Source: a virus
Lineage: Duplodnaviria > Heunggongvirae > Uroviricota > Caudoviricetes
DNA length: 44,178 bases
Reading direction: 5' to 3' (one strand)
Virus record (IMG/VR): IMGVR_UViG_3300045988_014135
Position 1 is the stretch's first letter, and every line of letters begins with the position of its first letter. Below the pieces are notes generated by a model. The model ran no database searches. It worked only from the letters and a program-made list of their open reading frames with translations, and was not told the DNA's origin. Both the position numbers and the translations under genes were made by a program. Below are positions 144 to 39,870 of this stretch, piece after piece.

Positions 144-202
144 AATTTACCTCTTAGTAAATGAAAAGAGGGACCGAAGTCCCTCTCGATTATATCTTAA
201 CC

Positions 203-3528: not shown

Positions 3529-3552
3529 AAGGCCCCTTACGGGGCCTTTTAT
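3529..3552. terminator. bidirectional intrinsic terminator (AAGGCCCC-TTAC-GGGGCCTT + T-run)
   Basis: 8-bp GC-rich stem, 4-nt loop, T-run on plus strand; between convergent genes 3003..3524 and 3552..4010. Confidence 0.7.
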
Positions 3553-6010: not shown

Positions 6011-6036
6011 AAGGCCCCATAACGGGGCCTTTTTAT
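6011..6036. terminator. bidirectional intrinsic terminator (AAGGCCCC-ATAAC-GGGGCCTT + T5)
   Basis: Hairpin plus T-run read directly; same hairpin family as 3529, 27414, 39844. Confidence 0.7.
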
Positions 6037-7506
6037 TTAATCCTGCTGCTGCGCCGCCTGCGGAATCTCTCCGGCTACCTGAGCAACAGCACCTAACGGC
6101 AGCGGCGCGTCCCCGATAGCATTCTTAATGTCCTCGTCTGTCCAGTCGGTTACACCCGCCTTGCGCAACGCAGCATAATAAGCAGTAGCGGGCAGCAAAC
6201 CTGCGTTAATATCAGCCATCCACTGAGCGCGGTCCTGGGCGGTCATCGGTTGCAGGAAGAACTCCATATTCAATTTAAACTCAACCTCTGTACCTTCACG
6301 CAACCCTAACATCGCAGCTACCCAGCGCAACGCATCTGTATACGCCATGCTTACATTACGTGCGATTGTCGCCATAACTGACGTATCCGCACCGCGTTGC
6401 AGTCTGGCCGATTCAGCGGTGATTTGCTGCGTCGGGGTGATAAGCTGCGCACCAATCTGGATGGCCTGATTCTCTTTATCCAGCATGTTCTGTTTGGCGA
6501 GGTTGTTCTCCCCCGCCTGAACCAGAAACGCATTGCCGCCGTGGCCGATGTTATGGCCCGAACGCGACCCCATACGCACGCCGTGGGGGTTGGCTTCTTT
6601 CCACTGTTCCATGCTCATATTCTCACCAGGGGCGATGAACAGAGTAGGCTGGCCAACAACGAAGCTGGACTCCTCATTGTCCGCGCTGTTGCGGAAATGC
6701 CCGATATTAAGCTCGGCCAACGGCAGCAAAGGGGCGTCGTCGATGGTCGCGTCATTGTTGCTTGCCCCAATAAAAGTGAACGGGATTTTGCCGCGTAACT
6801 GTTCGCCGAGTTCCGGGAATATTTCGATTACTTCATCCTGAGCGCCACCTTCGGCATCGAAGCGGTAAATGCGCTGGCGGTAGCGACCATCAATCAGGTC
6901 GAGAACGCGGTATTGTTCGCCGAACTTTGTTTCGAACTCTGCGCCCGGTTCTGAGTATTCCCATACCTCACGCAGCACGACCATTGTCACACGGTTAACT
7001 GAACCGACGCGGGTCAGTCGCCAGTTGATGATGTTCTCCGCGGTATAGAATGCGATGACCGGGTTTAGTAACCCTGCGTTCTGCTCGGCTGCCGTCGCTG
7101 CGGCTGTCTCCGGGGCGTCAACCAGCAACCCGCCACGTCCTACTGAGTCAATTTCCATCAGCGTGTCCTGGGCATGCTGCCACAGCCCGACACCAGAACC
7201 GTCGGCATTGCGTAACAGGTACTCCAGTTCACGAGGAATAATCTGCTCAGGGTCTTTTCTCATAACTGAGCCGACCATACCCGACAGGGTGCGCTTGGTG
7301 AAGTTGTAGCAGATAGCGCCGTTCTCGTATTCCTCCTGGCGTTGGGCGGCGTAAGTCGGGTCAGGCTCGTTCTTCCCGACGTTACGCAGGTAACGGATAA
7401 GGTCGCCTTCCAGCGCATGGCGCACCTTCTGCCATTTATCAAAGTGATGCAGCCATTCCCGGTGTTTTGTCTTAACACCTTGATTCTGACCGTTCATAGT
7501 TAACAT
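6037..7506 (-). CDS. portal protein (candidate)
   Basis: 489 aa ORF directly downstream of TerL; position and size. Confidence 0.6.
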   Translation of the reverse strand: MLTMNGQNQGVKTKHREWLHHFDKWQKVRHALEGDLIRYLRNVGKNEPDPTYAAQRQEEYENGAICYNFTKRTLSGMVGSVMRKDPEQIIPRELEYLLRNADGSGVGLWQHAQDTLMEIDSVGRGGLLVDAPETAAATAAEQNAGLLNPVIAFYTAENIINWRLTRVGSVNRVTMVVLREVWEYSEPGAEFETKFGEQYRVLDLIDGRYRQRIYRFDAEGGAQDEVIEIFPELGEQLRGKIPFTFIGASNNDATIDDAPLLPLAELNIGHFRNSADNEESSFVVGQPTLFIAPGENMSMEQWKEANPHGVRMGSRSGHNIGHGGNAFLVQAGENNLAKQNMLDKENQAIQIGAQLITPTQQITAESARLQRGADTSVMATIARNVSMAYTDALRWVAAMLGLREGTEVEFKLNMEFFLQPMTAQDRAQWMADINAGLLPATAYYAALRKAGVTDWTDEDIKNAIGDAPLPLGAVAQVAGEIPQAAQQQD

Positions 7507-7518
7507 TGAATAATCCTC

Positions 7519-8769
7519 TTAAAGTGCGAAAGTCACCGGGATGTTGATTACTGGTTTAACCACCGGCATCTCGTAAACTACAGGATAGCCCAGGGCATCT
7601 GCCATATGGTCGATGATGCCGTCTTTGGATGGCTCCCCGTTATCGTCATATGCCTGCTGCTCCAGCGTCTTCGCTATCTCAGGGCATAAGTGGTCGTTAA
7701 CCCACAGCTTACCTTTTTCCAGTGCGGTATTCACCGCTAAAACACGGTCTTTAACCGGCGGGTTGGCGGATTTAGCGCGAACATCGAACCCCGCCTGCTG
7801 TAGTAAGGCAATATCGGAGATTGACGCCGAGTTGGTTTTGCGGTTCTTGCCACTGGCGTCGGGGTAAACGACGATGCGGTGGCCTTGCGACTTCCACTTC
7901 TCGGTAATTACGCGCACGGTATCCGGCGTATCGAACAGGCCTTTCAGTTCTGCTACTGCATGCCAGCCGTCTTTACGTTGCACATACACGGCGCTGGCGT
8001 TCTTCGTAACGTTGAAGTCCTGCCCGATGTACAGCGTGTCGCCAGGTTGAATTGTCTCTTTGCTGCGGTGCTTACGGCGGTCGTATGCGTAATACACGCT
8101 GCCGGAGGTCAGGTTAACGAACTCACCGTTCAGATACGCGTTAATCAGTTGCGCGGGGTAAGTCTCTGTCAGCGAGCTGATGTAATCCGGCGGCAGGAAC
8201 CGCGCATTCTCGTGTGTGGAGGCCTGCACCATAGAGTAACTTGGCGTAGGATTCTCTTTGAACTTGGAGTAGACGAACTTGAACCCTTCCGGCGTTGTGG
8301 TGACGGAGATGTGGTTAATTACACCCGGGATAACCAGACGCATACGGGCTACGATTTTGTTCCACGCCAGTTCAGCTTTCTCGCGACTCAGTACGTCCAA
8401 CTCATCCACGACCGCCGCAGCGATTTTGAAACCAACTATCGAGCCGGGGTTATCCATCGAACGGCAGATAACCGTACCGAGCACCGTCTTACCGCGGGTA
8501 ACAACGACTTCTTTGTCGCCAGATTTAACCAGCACATCGAGGCCGAGAAGGTTAGCCGCTTCCTCGAATGTCGGGTAGAAGATGTCGCGGATGGCAGGAT
8601 ACGTCGGACCGAAGTAGCCAAGGCGCGTACCGGGGTGCTTGAGCATGAACGTAAGCAGGTCCAGACAGCCTACGAATGTCTTGCCGCTGCCGAAGCCCCC
8701 GACGTAGGCTTTGTATTTGTTATCGCAATTCAGGAACAGTGCCTGGGGCGCGGATAGCTGGATACTCAT
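7519..8769 (-). CDS. terminase large subunit
   Basis: Walker A YVGGFGSGKTF near N-terminus, acidic Walker B-like VVDELD; start overlaps TerS stop. Confidence 0.8.
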   Translation of the reverse strand: MSIQLSAPQALFLNCDNKYKAYVGGFGSGKTFVGCLDLLTFMLKHPGTRLGYFGPTYPAIRDIFYPTFEEAANLLGLDVLVKSGDKEVVVTRGKTVLGTVICRSMDNPGSIVGFKIAAAVVDELDVLSREKAELAWNKIVARMRLVIPGVINHISVTTTPEGFKFVYSKFKENPTPSYSMVQASTHENARFLPPDYISSLTETYPAQLINAYLNGEFVNLTSGSVYYAYDRRKHRSKETIQPGDTLYIGQDFNVTKNASAVYVQRKDGWHAVAELKGLFDTPDTVRVITEKWKSQGHRIVVYPDASGKNRKTNSASISDIALLQQAGFDVRAKSANPPVKDRVLAVNTALEKGKLWVNDHLCPEIAKTLEQQAYDDNGEPSKDGIIDHMADALGYPVVYEMPVVKPVINIPVTFAL

Positions 8770-9311
8770 TCCTCTACCTCGCCCATATTCGTTGTCACGA
8801 TTTTACCTACAGGCTCCGCGACACTGAAAATAATCTCAGTCGGTGCTGTTTCTTCGGTGGACTCAACAGGTTTCTCTTTGCTTAAGCCCAGCTTAGCCGC
8901 AGCAAACGTAGCGGAGATACCGGCGGCGCCTGTCTCAGTGAAATACGCCTCTTCCAGCGCCTGAGCGGTTTCATAGGCTTCTGCAAACGCCGGAATCTCA
9001 CGCAACCACAGCTTAATAATAGGGATAGTTACGCCGATGTGTAAGGCGAAGCGGGCCAGTGACGGGGGTTTATCCTGAATCAGCGGGCGTTCGTCACCCT
9101 TGGACGTAGGTACGAGTTCCCATGAGTTGCGGTCAAAGAACCGGATTAACTCGTCGCAATAGTCCGGGTCCCACAATGCCGCAGAATTACGGGATGACTG
9201 GTAAAGGCTCTGTTTACCCCGCGGTCGTTTACGGCGACGGTTGGCACTAACAGCCTCTTCATGTGCAGCTTGCACCACCTCAGGTGATGGTTGCTTAAGT
9301 GTAAGTTTCAT
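8766..9311 (-). CDS. terminase small subunit (candidate)
   Basis: Directly upstream of and overlapping TerL; basic N-terminal region; start set at ATG 9311 (MKLTLKQ...) preceded by a G-rich run; ORF track extends to 9350. Confidence 0.5.
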   Translation of the reverse strand: MKLTLKQPSPEVVQAAHEEAVSANRRRKRPRGKQSLYQSSRNSAALWDPDYCDELIRFFDRNSWELVPTSKGDERPLIQDKPPSLARFALHIGVTIPIIKLWLREIPAFAEAYETAQALEEAYFTETGAAGISATFAAAKLGLSKEKPVESTEETAPTEIIFSVAEPVGKIVTTNMGEVEE

Positions 9312-9328
9312 ATAACCCCCTGACATAT

Positions 9329-9370
9329 GCGTCTGACCATCAGAGCGCATCAGACGCGCCCTACGCGTCT
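9329..9370 (-). promoter_or_regulatory. structured leader: two mutually exclusive hairpins upstream of TerS
   Basis: Arms GCGTCTGA (9329-9336) / TCAGACGC (9350-9357); second palindrome AGACGCG-N5-CGCGTCT (9352-9370) shares an arm. Confidence 0.45.
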
Positions 9371-9376
9371 AAAGGG

Positions 9377-9405
9377 ATTATATAAGGGGATTGGGCTGGA
9401 TGTAC
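9377..9405 (-). promoter_or_regulatory. candidate late promoter (perfect TATAAT -10, weak -35)
   Basis: Minus-strand TATAAT at 9382-9377; -35 region GTACAT is poor, suggesting activator dependence. Confidence 0.3.
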
Positions 9406-9428
9406 AGAAAAGCCCTCCGTAGAGGGCT
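9403..9428 (-). terminator. intrinsic terminator ending the early operon
   Basis: Stem AGCCCTC/GAGGGCT, loop CGTA, followed on minus strand by UUUUCUGU. Confidence 0.55.
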
Positions 9429-9439
9429 TGATGGTTGGT

Positions 9440-9596
9440 TACCCGGTGATATCTCTGCCGTCTACCAGTGCTAACGGGATTCTCACTTCACCGTTGAATG
9501 TTTCGGCGTACCAGAACTTCTCACACTGCGTTACACTGAAAACATCGAGTTCTGACGTAGCGCCGGTTTTCCAGTAGACAGTTAACTTTTTCACTC
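9440..9596 (-). CDS. small hypothetical protein
   Basis: GTG start preceded by GGAGAGTGAGGA; 51 aa; last gene before terminator 9403..9428. Confidence 0.3.
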
Positions 9597-9827
9597 CTCA
9601 CTCTCCTCTTTAGCAATGCGTTGCTCAGTTTTAGTGATACCGCGGCGAGTGAATAACACCGGGCTTGTCTTAACATGCGTCATAAGACGGTTGTTATAAA
9701 TTACGTGACGCTCGCAGTTAACGTCTTTGCTGTACTTCGCAATCGTCATTTCGTTGATGCCAGTTTGTCGGCATGTCTCAGCCATCGTGCCATATTCTTT
9801 AATCAGGTTCGGAATGCTGGTAATCAT
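9591..9827 (-). CDS. small HTH-like protein (candidate regulator)
   Basis: MAETCRQTGINEMTIAKY has helix-turn-helix character; start at ATG 9827 overlapping upstream stop (ATGA). Confidence 0.35.
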   Translation of the reverse strand: MITSIPNLIKEYGTMAETCRQTGINEMTIAKYSKDVNCERHVIYNNRLMTHVKTSPVLFTRRGITKTEQRIAKEESEE

Positions 9828-9994
9828 CCTAAGAAATTCCTCGTTGTCCACATCGCATTCGGATATTTATTATCGCGGTCCTGCACTACGGTAATCATGT
9901 TACCGCGTTGCACGAGGCAAAAGTGCCGCTGTTGCTCGCCGTTATAGCGCCGCCATATTGCTTCTTCGATTGCTGCGTTGATGTCACTGAACAT
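9824..9994 (-). CDS. small hypothetical protein
   Basis: 56-aa ORF, stop overlaps next start; hand translated. Confidence 0.3.
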   Translation of the reverse strand: MFSDINAAIEEAIWRRYNGEQQRHFCLVQRGNMITVVQDRDNKYPNAMWTTRNFLG

Positions 9995-11533: not shown

Positions 11534-12037
11534 TCATTTAACAGCCCTCCCAATAGCCTCCGCCTCCTGCCACGGTTTACCGTCGAACAGCGCCAGACGA
11601 CCAGCTACGCGACGGCGTAGGCCGAGCACAGGCTCGAGTTTACCGGTTTTCGGGTTGCGTTGGTTAATGAACTGACTCATCTTATGCCGTAAGGTTGTGA
11701 TGTCCCCCTGCCGTAGCGCCTTACCAGTTCCAGTAGTAGCCGCAATCACGCCAGTCCCTGCGTTGAACACCAGGTCGACAACGGCATCAAACTGAGCCTG
11801 GGTCAGTGAGGGGTGCGCGACTTCATCGACTGCTTTCACCGCCCACTGCATATCACGGTTCAGTAACAGCAACCCCTGGCCTTCGGTAATCTTCTGGCCT
11901 TCGTACACATCCGGTCCGGTATGGCCCCAGCCTATAGTCCAGTATTTCTCGTTCTTTGTTGCTTTGTATGCAGTTCCGCGAAACTTCTCCCACGCCTTTT
12001 TGAACTGCAGCCCATTATCTGAAATATTTCGAGACAC
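11534..12037 (-). CDS. endolysin, T4-lysozyme / GH24 family
   Basis: YWTIGWGHTG lysozyme signature; ISDNGLQFKKAWEKFRGTAY parallels the P22 gp19 N-terminus; start set at GTG 12037 after GGAGGA. Confidence 0.8.
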   Translation of the reverse strand: MSRNISDNGLQFKKAWEKFRGTAYKATKNEKYWTIGWGHTGPDVYEGQKITEGQGLLLLNRDMQWAVKAVDEVAHPSLTQAQFDAVVDLVFNAGTGVIAATTGTGKALRQGDITTLRHKMSQFINQRNPKTGKLEPVLGLRRRVAGRLALFDGKPWQEAEAIGRAVK

Positions 12038-12287
12038 GCTTATATCCTCCGTACGACAACCACGCCTGACGAATCTGACGCAGCGCAACTAATGTGATTA
12101 ACGTCTCAGGCAACGTTGGTGACACGCTGCCCTGTAACAGGTGGATACATCCGGCGGCGCAGACAATCACAGTCAGGATATAGAGCACACGCCCGAATAA
12201 CCCGTCGTCCACGTGCCCATTATACACACTGAACAGGGACGAAGCGCCCATTGCCAGCATTACGACAAACCAGAATAGCTCAGTCAT
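12015..12287 (-). CDS. holin/antiholin-like 2-TM membrane protein
   Basis: Two hydrophobic helices (LFWFVVMLAMGASSLFSV; VLYILTVIVCAAGCIHLL); between holin and endolysin; start at ATG 12287. Confidence 0.5.
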   Translation of the reverse strand: MTELFWFVVMLAMGASSLFSVYNGHVDDGLFGRVLYILTVIVCAAGCIHLLQGSVSPTLPETLITLVALRQIRQAWLSYGGYKRVSKYFR

Positions 12288-12588
12288 GAGGTCCTCCCGG
12301 GCGGGAAATATCGCCACCCGATACGATGCCAGAAAGGCGGGAATAGATAGGCATCCAGAGAATGGCAATGATGAATCCGAGGCCAGCTATCTCGCGCTCA
12401 CCGGTAATACCGAACCATTGAGCGGCAAGAGGTGCACCGAAAATGGCACACGCGAAGCCGGTGAGAAGAAATACCAGTCCGTCGACTGGACCGGATATAG
12501 ACTTTTTATGTTGTCTTAGTCCGACCAATCCACCGACCAGTGCGGCGGTGAGAAGCCACCCCGTCACTGTTTCAGTAAATTTATCCAA
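12280..12588 (-). CDS. holin (multi-TM)
   Basis: 102 aa with about three TM segments; TTG start 6 nt after GGAGGA; first gene of lysis cassette. Confidence 0.55.
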   Translation of the reverse strand: MDKFTETVTGWLLTAALVGGLVGLRQHKKSISGPVDGLVFLLTGFACAIFGAPLAAQWFGITGEREIAGLGFIIAILWMPIYSRLSGIVSGGDISRPGGPHD

Positions 12589-27409: not shown

Positions 27410-27440
27410 AGAAAAGGCCCCGATTGGGGCCTTAGTTTTA
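27409..27440. terminator. bidirectional intrinsic terminator (AAGGCCCC-GATT-GGGGCCTT)
   Basis: Between convergent replication and tail operons; T-rich on both sides. Confidence 0.7.
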
Positions 27441-39839: not shown

Positions 39840-39870
39840 GAAAAAGGCCCCGAAAGGGGCCTTAGTTTTA
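39840..39870. terminator. bidirectional intrinsic terminator (AAGGCCCC-GAAA-GGGGCCTT)
   Basis: Between the plus-strand cassette and the convergent major tail gene. Confidence 0.7.

Follow-up and report, generated by a model that had tools for sequence, protein, structure and literature searches.

A conserved, predicted two-hairpin mRNA leader ahead of the small terminase gene in Guernseyvirinae and related siphophages

Introduction

A hairpin at the 5′ end of an mRNA protects Escherichia coli messages from 5′-end-dependent decay, and 5′-terminal stabiliser hairpins of E. coli mRNAs, of the type present in the ompA 5′ untranslated region, were reportedly described by Emory, Bouvet and Belasco in 1992. 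Leaders that sequester the Shine-Dalgarno sequence are known from phages, as in the lambda N leader with RNase III and in the Mu mom/Com system, while the packaging sites pac and cos lie near the start of the small terminase subunit gene (terS) in SPP1 (pacL), lambda (cosB), P22 (pac) and similar phages. In phage HK022, the put RNA renders the host polymerase terminator-resistant during early transcription, and putL follows the sigma-70 promoter PL with two stem-loops that occupy the transcript from about +1 to +3 onward (PMC9378689). The element described here is the leader of terS in IMGVR_UViG_3300045988_014135, a virus record of 44,178 nucleotides assigned to Caudoviricetes (the whole stretch is referred to as the window), in which two adjacent hairpins, H1 and H2, stand between a predicted sigma-70 promoter and the gene.

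If transcription starts ~7 nt after the −10, the terS leader resembles the ompA-type stabilisers in placing a stable hairpin 0–2 nt from the predicted 5′ end and an open ribosome-binding site after it, but differs from them in having two hairpins with invariant triloops and a 5′ end that is itself predicted. As in leaders of the lambda N and Mu mom type, the Shine-Dalgarno sequence and start codon have their pairing partner in a pyrimidine-rich segment further upstream, and the two arms co-vary between lineages; unlike in those leaders, the anti-Shine-Dalgarno segment of terS overlaps its own −10 element, so that it would occur only in read-through RNA, and it is not universal across the motif.

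Results

Two adjacent hairpins maintained by compensatory change

The minus strand is the coding strand, and every gene near the leader lies on it. Read 5′ to 3′ on this strand, the gap ahead of terS consists of an intrinsic terminator, TGTACA-18 nt-TATAAT, TAGACGCGTAGGGCGCGTCTGATGCGCTCTGATGGTCAGACGCAT, AGGGGG, 4 bases and the ATG at 9311 (Table 1). Two hairpins occupy the space downstream of the −10 hexamer: H1, which as RNA reads AGACGCGU-AGG-GCGCGUCU, and H2, which begins one base after H1. The 74-nt leader extending from the −10 to the ATG reaches a folding energy of −34.5 kcal/mol (z = −5.3; none of 200 shuffles equally stable), and the H1 plus H2 core taken separately gives z = −3.5. RNAfold applied to each lineage and RNAalifold applied to 58 distinct sequences agree on two adjacent hairpins, with RNAalifold recovering the terminator, H1, H2 and a closing stem, and a three-way junction is predicted separately in each lineage. 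The entire module is conserved in every relative examined.

The comparison spans about 12 sequence lineages, covering Kagunavirus, Jerseyvirus, other Guernseyvirinae, Dhillonvirus, Eiauvirus, a Serratia phage and metagenomic relatives. Regions upstream of terS were taken from 49 IMG/VR contigs and 36 metagenome contigs, from five Logan contigs whose TerS is 58–62% identical, and from GenBank phages whose TerS is ~35% identical over the core, namely Salmonella phage STP-1, the Dhillonviruses Gluttony and rolling, Edwardsiella phage eiAU-183 and Serratia phage Smarc3. Further IMG/VR sequences, including one designated L192, were among the listed matches of a pattern scan and were screened with a covariance model. 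The IMG/VR and metagenome protein scans gave mostly the same lineages, the diverged ones being contributed by the Logan contigs, the GenBank phages and the pattern scan. Across this material the motif extends over Guernseyvirinae, Dhillonvirus, Eiauvirus, Serratia phage Smarc3 and the metagenomic lineage L192, and it accompanies the TerS family phrog_3064 even at about 30–35% protein identity. In L192 (positions 861–936; IMG/VR 3300023280_000122, a 47.6-kb contig), the AGG/UGG two-hairpin motif stands before a much more diverged TerS homologue (MKIGKAKPKG...), lacking the anti-Shine-Dalgarno stem, so the distribution of the motif exceeds the named genera.

Covariation in the stems is extensive. 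In the MAFFT alignment A2, 97% of the cells belonging to the terminator, H1 and H2 are paired, compared with 30–60% when the partner is slid, and 13 of the 25 pairs change on both sides, a result matched by none of 500 shuffles. Within H2, 99% of cells are paired and seven of ten pairs are compensatory; among 22 representatives aligned to the covariance model, its apical helix shows 3–4 pair types per position, with apex variants that include UCUGA/UCAGA, UAUGA/UCAUA, GCCGA/UCGGC, GCAGG/CCUGC and GGAGA/UCUCC. For H1, with the register set on the triloop, 93.6% of cells are paired and six of seven pairs change on both sides. The loops vary far less: the H1 loop is AGG in nine of 12 lineages (AGA, UGA or CGG in the rest), and the H2 apex is GA-UGG-UC in ten of 12 (CGG and G-UGG-C in the rest). 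Two further alignments, A5 and A6, lean towards the structure, which guided their fitting or selection; A2 is free of this bias and gives the same answer.

The heptamer TGATGGT, present in the H2 loop on the minus strand (9336–9342), occurs three times within 160 bp, the two other copies lying on the plus strand at 9285–9297 and 9429–9441 as TGATGGTTG(C/G)TTA. These outer copies (9285–9291 and 9429–9435) are not conserved in relatives, and the triplet, considered as a candidate repeat, is probably due to chance.

The departures from Watson-Crick pairing carry information about the strand. A G.U class and an A.C class are equivalent when read on the opposite strand or in duplex DNA. In the helices of the leader, however, non-Watson-Crick cells divide between G.U and A.C at 37:9 in the structure-fitted alignment A5 and at 55:11 in A2. 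In addition, the covariance model finds exactly one match per genome; its sense-strand scores run from 41 to 93 bits over all lineages, and its antisense scores never exceed 19 bits. Both asymmetries identify the H1–H2 element as a sense-strand RNA structure.

Searches of Rfam 15 return no match to the leader at E ≤ 10 for the window or at E ≤ 1 for seven other lineages, no paper describing the H1–H2 element was found in the literature searched, and neither the promoter layout nor the hairpin recurs in the window. It is well supported that H1–H2 constitutes an RNA motif not in Rfam and apparently undescribed, forming a structured mRNA leader of a familiar general kind.

The initial annotation reported two overlapping inverted repeats with a common arm, and these are present on the minus strand exactly as claimed. 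The first, I2, defines the alternative pairing of Table 1 (GCGUCUGA/UCAGACGC as RNA); the second, I6, is AGACGCG/CGCGTCT at 9352–9358 and 9364–9370. Both are perfect, and they overlap over the six bases 9352–9357. The alternative helix owes its existence to a chance resemblance, in Kagunavirus, between the 3′ arm of H1 and the 5′ arm of H2. H2 uses the same 3′ arm as the alternative hairpin, but its partner is 9350..9340 and not 9357..9350. Only Kagunavirus can form the alternative helix: one of its positions is unpaired in seven of seven non-Kagunavirus sequences and a second in five of seven, no such pairing can be drawn in L052, L053 or L051, and RNAalifold does not predict it. Energetically, the helix contributes −11.8 kcal/mol against −22.8 kcal/mol for H1 plus H2, its equilibrium probability is 0.0017, and the best fold containing it, at −19.0 kcal/mol, lies 3.8 kcal/mol above the minimum. 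The proposal that the two hairpins are mutually exclusive does not survive this comparison, as the conserved H2 adopts the other register and sits beside H1 without competing with it.

Promoter and upstream terminator

The leader is preceded by a candidate sigma-70 promoter whose −10 element is strong and whose −35 is weak. A promoter scan scores TGTACA-18 nt-TATAAT (9406..9377) at 10 of 12, bearing out the perfect TATAAT with a poor −35 that had been noted from the sequence. A perfect TATAAT alone is unremarkable (19.8 expected in the window, 15 present); it is the comparative pattern that supports a promoter here. The −10 is TATAAT or TACAAT (TAYAAT) in all of the ~12 lineages, at the end of a 16–19-nt spacer whose sequences are unrelated. 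At the −35 position the other lineages carry weak TTGACA-like hexamers with 3–5 of six matches (TTTACC, TTGCCA, TTGCCT and similar), 16–19 nt from the −10, and the Dhillonviruses, which have no space for a −35 after the terminator, have an extended −10, TGtTATAAT (TGnTATAAT), instead. In L051 and L138 the −10 is conserved though it is unpaired in every predicted fold, so its conservation is not a by-product of RNA pairing. The usual sigma-70 geometry places the predicted transcription start at the foot of H1, and H1 starts 6–8 nt after the −10 in ten of 14 sequence variants. An antisense promoter at the inverted TATAA was also considered and rejected, there being no usable −35 and no hit in the scan.

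The terminator that the initial annotation placed directly before the promoter is likewise present on the minus strand, as a GC-rich hairpin followed by TTTTCT and located directly 3′ of the stop codon of a 51-amino-acid (aa) open reading frame (ORF). Its pairing is conserved, with compensatory T:A to G:C changes (CCCTC/GAGGG to CCCGC/GCGGG) in Jerseyvirus and other lineages. A simple promoter/terminator scan missed this terminator, part of its T-run lying inside the stem. At 9407–9486 (minus strand), a match to isrB stays below the Rfam gathering score (22.9 bits; threshold 35); it takes in the terminator together with the last part of the 51-aa ORF and is in all likelihood a spurious match produced by the terminator.

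Anti-Shine-Dalgarno stem and terS start codon

A segment that overlaps and follows the −10, UUAUAUAAUCCCUU as RNA (9385..9372), is complementary to AGGGGGUUAUAUGA (9321..9308), which contains the Shine-Dalgarno sequence and start codon of terS. Together with H1 and H2, this anti-Shine-Dalgarno pairing generates a closed three-way junction. On the alignment, 89% of cells in the closing stem are paired, compared with 41–60% when the partner is slid, and six of 14 pairs change on both sides. Specifically, the paired segments are AAUCCC/GGGAUU in Kagunavirus, ACAAUCCU/AGGAUUGU in Jerseyvirus and AAUCUCCU/AGGAGAUU in STP-1; written as DNA, the compensatory sets are AATCCC/GGGATT, AATCCT/AGGATT and AATCTCCT/AGGAGATT. 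The duplex has an energy of −9 to −14 kcal/mol and beats at least 99% of shuffled arms (p ≤ 0.008) in seven Guernseyvirinae lineages; Dhillonvirus has a weaker version of it, and Eiauvirus and L192 have none. By this distribution, the stem is an accessory feature of the motif and not its core.

Transcription starting ~7 nt after the −10 would leave the anti-Shine-Dalgarno arm out of the promoter-made mRNA, so that the arm would be present only in RNA reading through from upstream. In the folds, the ribosome-binding site is single-stranded in the predicted promoter-initiated transcript and paired in the read-through RNA, which on this modelling would be translationally silent for terS. The promoter spacer at 9386–9400 (minus strand) is unusually C-rich (TCCAGCCCAATCCCC). 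For most Kagunavirus sequences, AAUCCCCUU in this place could pair without a mismatch with AAGGGGAUU of the Shine-Dalgarno region, and read-through RNA may thus have a second segment of the anti-Shine-Dalgarno kind.

Database records start terS at an upstream ATG or GTG (9350), at the foot of H2. In phage Ivi, a GenBank relative, terS is annotated as a 585-nt coding sequence beginning at the upstream ATG inside H2, with the real start 39 nt downstream. The upstream frame is shifted in L052, L053 and Dhillonvirus (with an in-frame TAA in L053) and closed early in STP-1 and L139, and its start codon is absent in Smarc3, eiAU, L192 and L051. A start encoding MKL or MAL behind a good Shine-Dalgarno sequence is common to all relatives, and gene callers use it in the diverged ones. 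As the upstream frame and start are unconserved and the MKL/MAL start is universal, the comparison identifies the ATG at 9311, and not the upstream ATG at 9350, as the true start of terS.

Discussion

On balance, and with slightly better than even confidence in the explanation as a whole, the locus is best read as the start of the packaging and structural transcription unit, in which a promoter is followed by two non-competing adjacent hairpins that form the terS 5′ leader, keep the ribosome-binding site open, protect the 5′ end and present loops to a bound factor. From the observed anatomy, conservation, covariation and strand specificity we infer a transcription start, stabilising and translational roles, and factor binding, arranged as follows. 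The intrinsic terminator would end the upstream mosaic gene block, and the host sigma-70 promoter directly behind it would start transcription at about 9370. The terS mRNA would then open with H1 at its extreme 5′ end (0–2 nt), followed after one base by H2 and then by an unpaired stretch of ~20 nt that contains the Shine-Dalgarno sequence and, at 9311, the start codon. In this promoter-made mRNA, H1 and H2 would fold locally, leaving the ribosome-binding site open, and the 5′-terminal H1 probably shields the message from 5′-end-dependent decay. Being invariant, the AGG and UGG triloops probably bind a factor, which may be a phage protein, a host protein, the polymerase or the ribosome. In RNA leaking past the terminator, UUAUAUAAUCCCUU would pair with the Shine-Dalgarno sequence and AUG, close the three-way junction and hide the ribosome-binding site; with that site hidden, TerS synthesis would depend on its own promoter.

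Several points weigh against this reading. The anti-Shine-Dalgarno stem is strong only in Guernseyvirinae and so cannot be the core function, and the closing stem carries a mid-stem mismatch in most Kagunavirus sequences (42 of 58 sequences). The lineages are few and cell counts overstate the number of independent events, in addition to which A5 and A6, having been built around the structure, are biased towards it. A simple stabiliser hairpin needs no invariant AGG/UGG loops, so end protection would account for only part of the function. The literature searched contains no transcript data or transcription map for this phage group, and no transcription start, RNA half-life or translation data for these phages.

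The leader appears to be a modest regulatory element, but would be of much greater significance if RNA polymerase were recruited or modified by the loops. It places a conserved predicted promoter at the head of the packaging and structural operon in a group of phages much used as biocontrol agents against Salmonella and E. coli, and it corrects the start of terS, a gene that many database records begin inside H2. The motif is compact, consisting of two hairpins with AGG and UGG triloops and an optional anti-Shine-Dalgarno stem, and its covariation, traced through five phage genera or more, is unusually clean. Should the polymerase or another factor bind the loops, the element would offer a handle on the timing and dosing of packaging genes in virulent siphophages that have no polymerase of their own; if it is merely an mRNA stabiliser or insulator, it is an ordinary, tidy structured leader.

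Among the alternatives, a translational operator is unlikely but survives best. A phage protein travelling with the module, TerS being the obvious candidate, or a host protein would bind the AGG/UGG triloops and set the amount of TerS in an autoregulatory loop. Such a role would suit loops that stay invariant while the stems covary, a position 15–25 nt before the Shine-Dalgarno sequence, and the co-occurrence of the motif with phrog_3064 TerS at about 30–35% identity and nowhere else in the genome; this co-occurrence may, however, merely reflect the physical linkage of leader and gene, and this TerS has no Pfam match and no known or predicted ability to bind RNA. The motif bound by CsrA is GGA, which the loops, read as AGG-G and UGG-U, do not fit, and CsrA-type GGA loops were rejected as candidates.

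Antitermination of the put kind is a rather doubtful alternative, in which the nascent H1–H2 RNA would bind the elongating host polymerase and make it resist terminators inside the structural operon. The terS leader shares with HK022 putL and putR the arrangement of a cis-acting two-stem-loop RNA directly after a sigma-70 promoter, with the putL spacing of about +1 to +3, and the Kagunavirus H1 (TAGACG..GGCGCGTCT) resembles the essential putL 5′ hairpin AGACG..CGUCU. Its loops are invariant across phages whose hosts have one conserved RNA polymerase, and terminator-type hairpins do lie downstream in the operon on the minus strand, at 6031..6011 after the portal gene, 3548..3529 and 187..166, although internal terminators are common in phage operons without antitermination. 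The differences are substantial: the element measures 44 nt against about 70 nt, its first stem is neither bulged nor part of a triplex, nothing in it corresponds to the conserved sequence block of stem II or to the critical residues U28, G35, G45 and A64, and it precedes the late packaging genes of virulent siphophages, whereas put precedes the early genes of a lambdoid phage. The similarity to putL is marginal (p ~ 0.02) and confined to Kagunavirus, with none to putR and none in other lineages, and the covariance model of the motif misses both putL and putR. Membership of the HK022 put family by sequence was rejected on these grounds together with shuffling tests; Rfam 15 holds no HK022 put family, and putL (L266:4240–4320, minus strand) and putR are themselves without a match there. 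By analogy, H1–H2 could be a compact put-like or factor-recruiting RNA that reprograms polymerase past the AAGGCCCC..GGGGCCTT terminators in Guernseyvirinae, Dhillonvirus, Eiauvirus and their relatives, a proposal to which we give little credence; if true, a put-like leader of this type would represent a second, independent class of cis-acting antiterminator RNA in enterobacterial phages.

A packaging site is less probable again. Under this explanation TerS would recognise the inverted repeats in DNA to start headful packaging, and the terS leader indeed lies at the 5′ end of terS, as such sites do in SPP1 and lambda, overlaps the promoter as in SPP1, and is linked to a TerS family. It differs from pac and cos sites in lacking repeated protein-binding boxes, being single-copy, and in conserving pairing rather than sequence: stem sequences are free to change provided that the partners still pair, and G.U is accepted much more readily than A.C, the signature of a single-stranded, sense-specific element. 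Published work on relatives supports headful packaging, yet no terminus has been mapped at this place: PhageTerm results for relatives point to random or permuted ends, with random ends in Jerseyvirus SeF1 and no termini in Kagunavirus fBC-Eco01, and a digest of Jerseyvirus K47 yields no submolar pac fragment. The suggestion of a terminase recognition element, made in the initial annotation, therefore finds no support. The start positions of database records, considered as packaging evidence, are set at the annotated terS and are uninformative.

A coding explanation, in which the hairpin region would lengthen TerS at its N terminus or encode a short leader peptide from the ATG or GTG at the foot of H2, is highly improbable. 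The frame from the ATG at 9350 is open into terS in Kagunavirus and Jerseyvirus, where it is annotated as such, an AGGG resembling a Shine-Dalgarno sequence lies 8 nt before this ATG, and a peptide xxDGxxH appears, by eye, to be conserved in several lineages. This peptide is the shadow of the conserved GAUGGU loop. The frame is shifted or closed early in several lineages and four lack the start codon, the substitutions match as RNA stem partners and not as conservative amino-acid changes, and the start at 9311 has the better Shine-Dalgarno sequence and is common to all relatives; a leader peptide or N-terminal extension was rejected on the non-conservation of frame and start codon.

Least credible of all is an attenuator, in which H1 and the GCGTCTGA/TCAGACGC hairpin would alternate to switch terS transcription or translation: although both pairings are perfect in the window with a common arm, and a fold containing the alternative helix costs merely the 3.8 kcal/mol given above, the overlapping repeats that recall trp and his attenuators occur in this one genome, and the leader lacks a hairpin that runs into U residues as a terminator does (the bases after H1 are GAUGCG, those after H2 AUGUCAGG), a conserved alternative pairing (compensatory changes keep H2 in the other register) and a conserved leader peptide (neither frame nor start codon of the upstream ORF being conserved), so that the attenuator-type leader initially suggested is largely refuted by the comparative data.

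Genomic context and recurring hairpins

The window is a Kagunavirus-like siphophage: 279 phage records match the 1.2 kb surrounding the leader at 80–95% identity, nearly all of them Kagunavirus and Jerseyvirus siphophages of E. coli and Salmonella. The operon upstream of the terminator comprises lysis genes and nin-like small ORFs. Among the Kagunavirus and Jerseyvirus genomes compared, the genes before the terminator differ, in a mosaic pattern, and everything from the terminator onward is conserved. The leader does precede the small terminase gene, as first annotated (Table 1); the originally delimited interval, 9329–9405, clips one base of the −35-like hexamer and omits the terminator, the Shine-Dalgarno sequence and the start codon.

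Table 1. Features of the terS leader and neighbouring genes, in order of transcription
Feature	Coordinates	Strand	Description
Holins and endolysin	about 12588..11534	−	first in transcription order
NinH-like protein	9851..9594	−	in a run of small ORFs that also includes the 51-aa ORF; after lysis genes
51-aa ORF	9594..9439	−	stop codon 9441..9439; last ORF before leader
Intergenic gap, 128 nt	between 51-aa ORF and terS	−	holds terminator, promoter and leader
Intrinsic terminator	9406..9429	−	hairpin AAGCCCTC-tacg-GAGGGCTT, 8-bp stem, then TTTTCT; inverted repeat I3
−35-like hexamer	9401..9406	−	TGTACA, 4 of 6 matches; overlaps end of terminator T-run
Anti-Shine-Dalgarno arm	9372..9385	−	TTATATAATCCCTT; pairs with 9321..9308 in minimum-free-energy folds
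−10 hexamer	9377..9382	−	TATAAT, perfect; promoter scan
Predicted transcription start	9369..9371	−	~7th base after −10, foot of H1; from usual sigma-70 geometry
H1	9352..9370	−	DNA AGACGCGT-agg-GCGCGTCT; 8 bp, AGG triloop 9362..9360
Alternative pairing	9329..9357	−	GCGTCTGA (9357..9350) with TCAGACGC (9336..9329); inverted repeat I2
H2	9327..9350	−	ATGCG-c-TCTGA-tgg-TCAGA-CGCAT; 5+5 bp, bulged C 9345, UGG triloop 9339..9337
Shine-Dalgarno sequence and start codon	9308..9321	−	AGGGGG 9321..9316, ATG 9311..9309; also 3′ arm of closing stem
terS, small terminase subunit	8766..9311	−	181 aa; phrog_3064 terminase, E = 2e-72
Large terminase	8769..7519	−	Terminase_6N/6C; 3′ of terS
Portal protein	7506..6037	−	after large terminase

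Elsewhere in the window, a palindromic hairpin, AAGGCCCC-N4/5-GGGGCCTT, occurs four times between genes (3529–3548, 6011–6031, 27414–27433 and 39844–39863) and looks like a bidirectional terminator module. The copy at the portal stop, on the minus strand, has the tail AGTTTTAG, with CATAAT ~45 nt further on. A separate strong hairpin, GAGAGGGAC-ttcg-GTCCCTCTT followed by TTTCATTT, lies within 166–194 (minus strand) directly after a perfect TATAAT at 194..189; situated between the stop codon of a 349-aa ORF and the Shine-Dalgarno sequence of the next gene, it is probably the terminator after a highly expressed structural gene.

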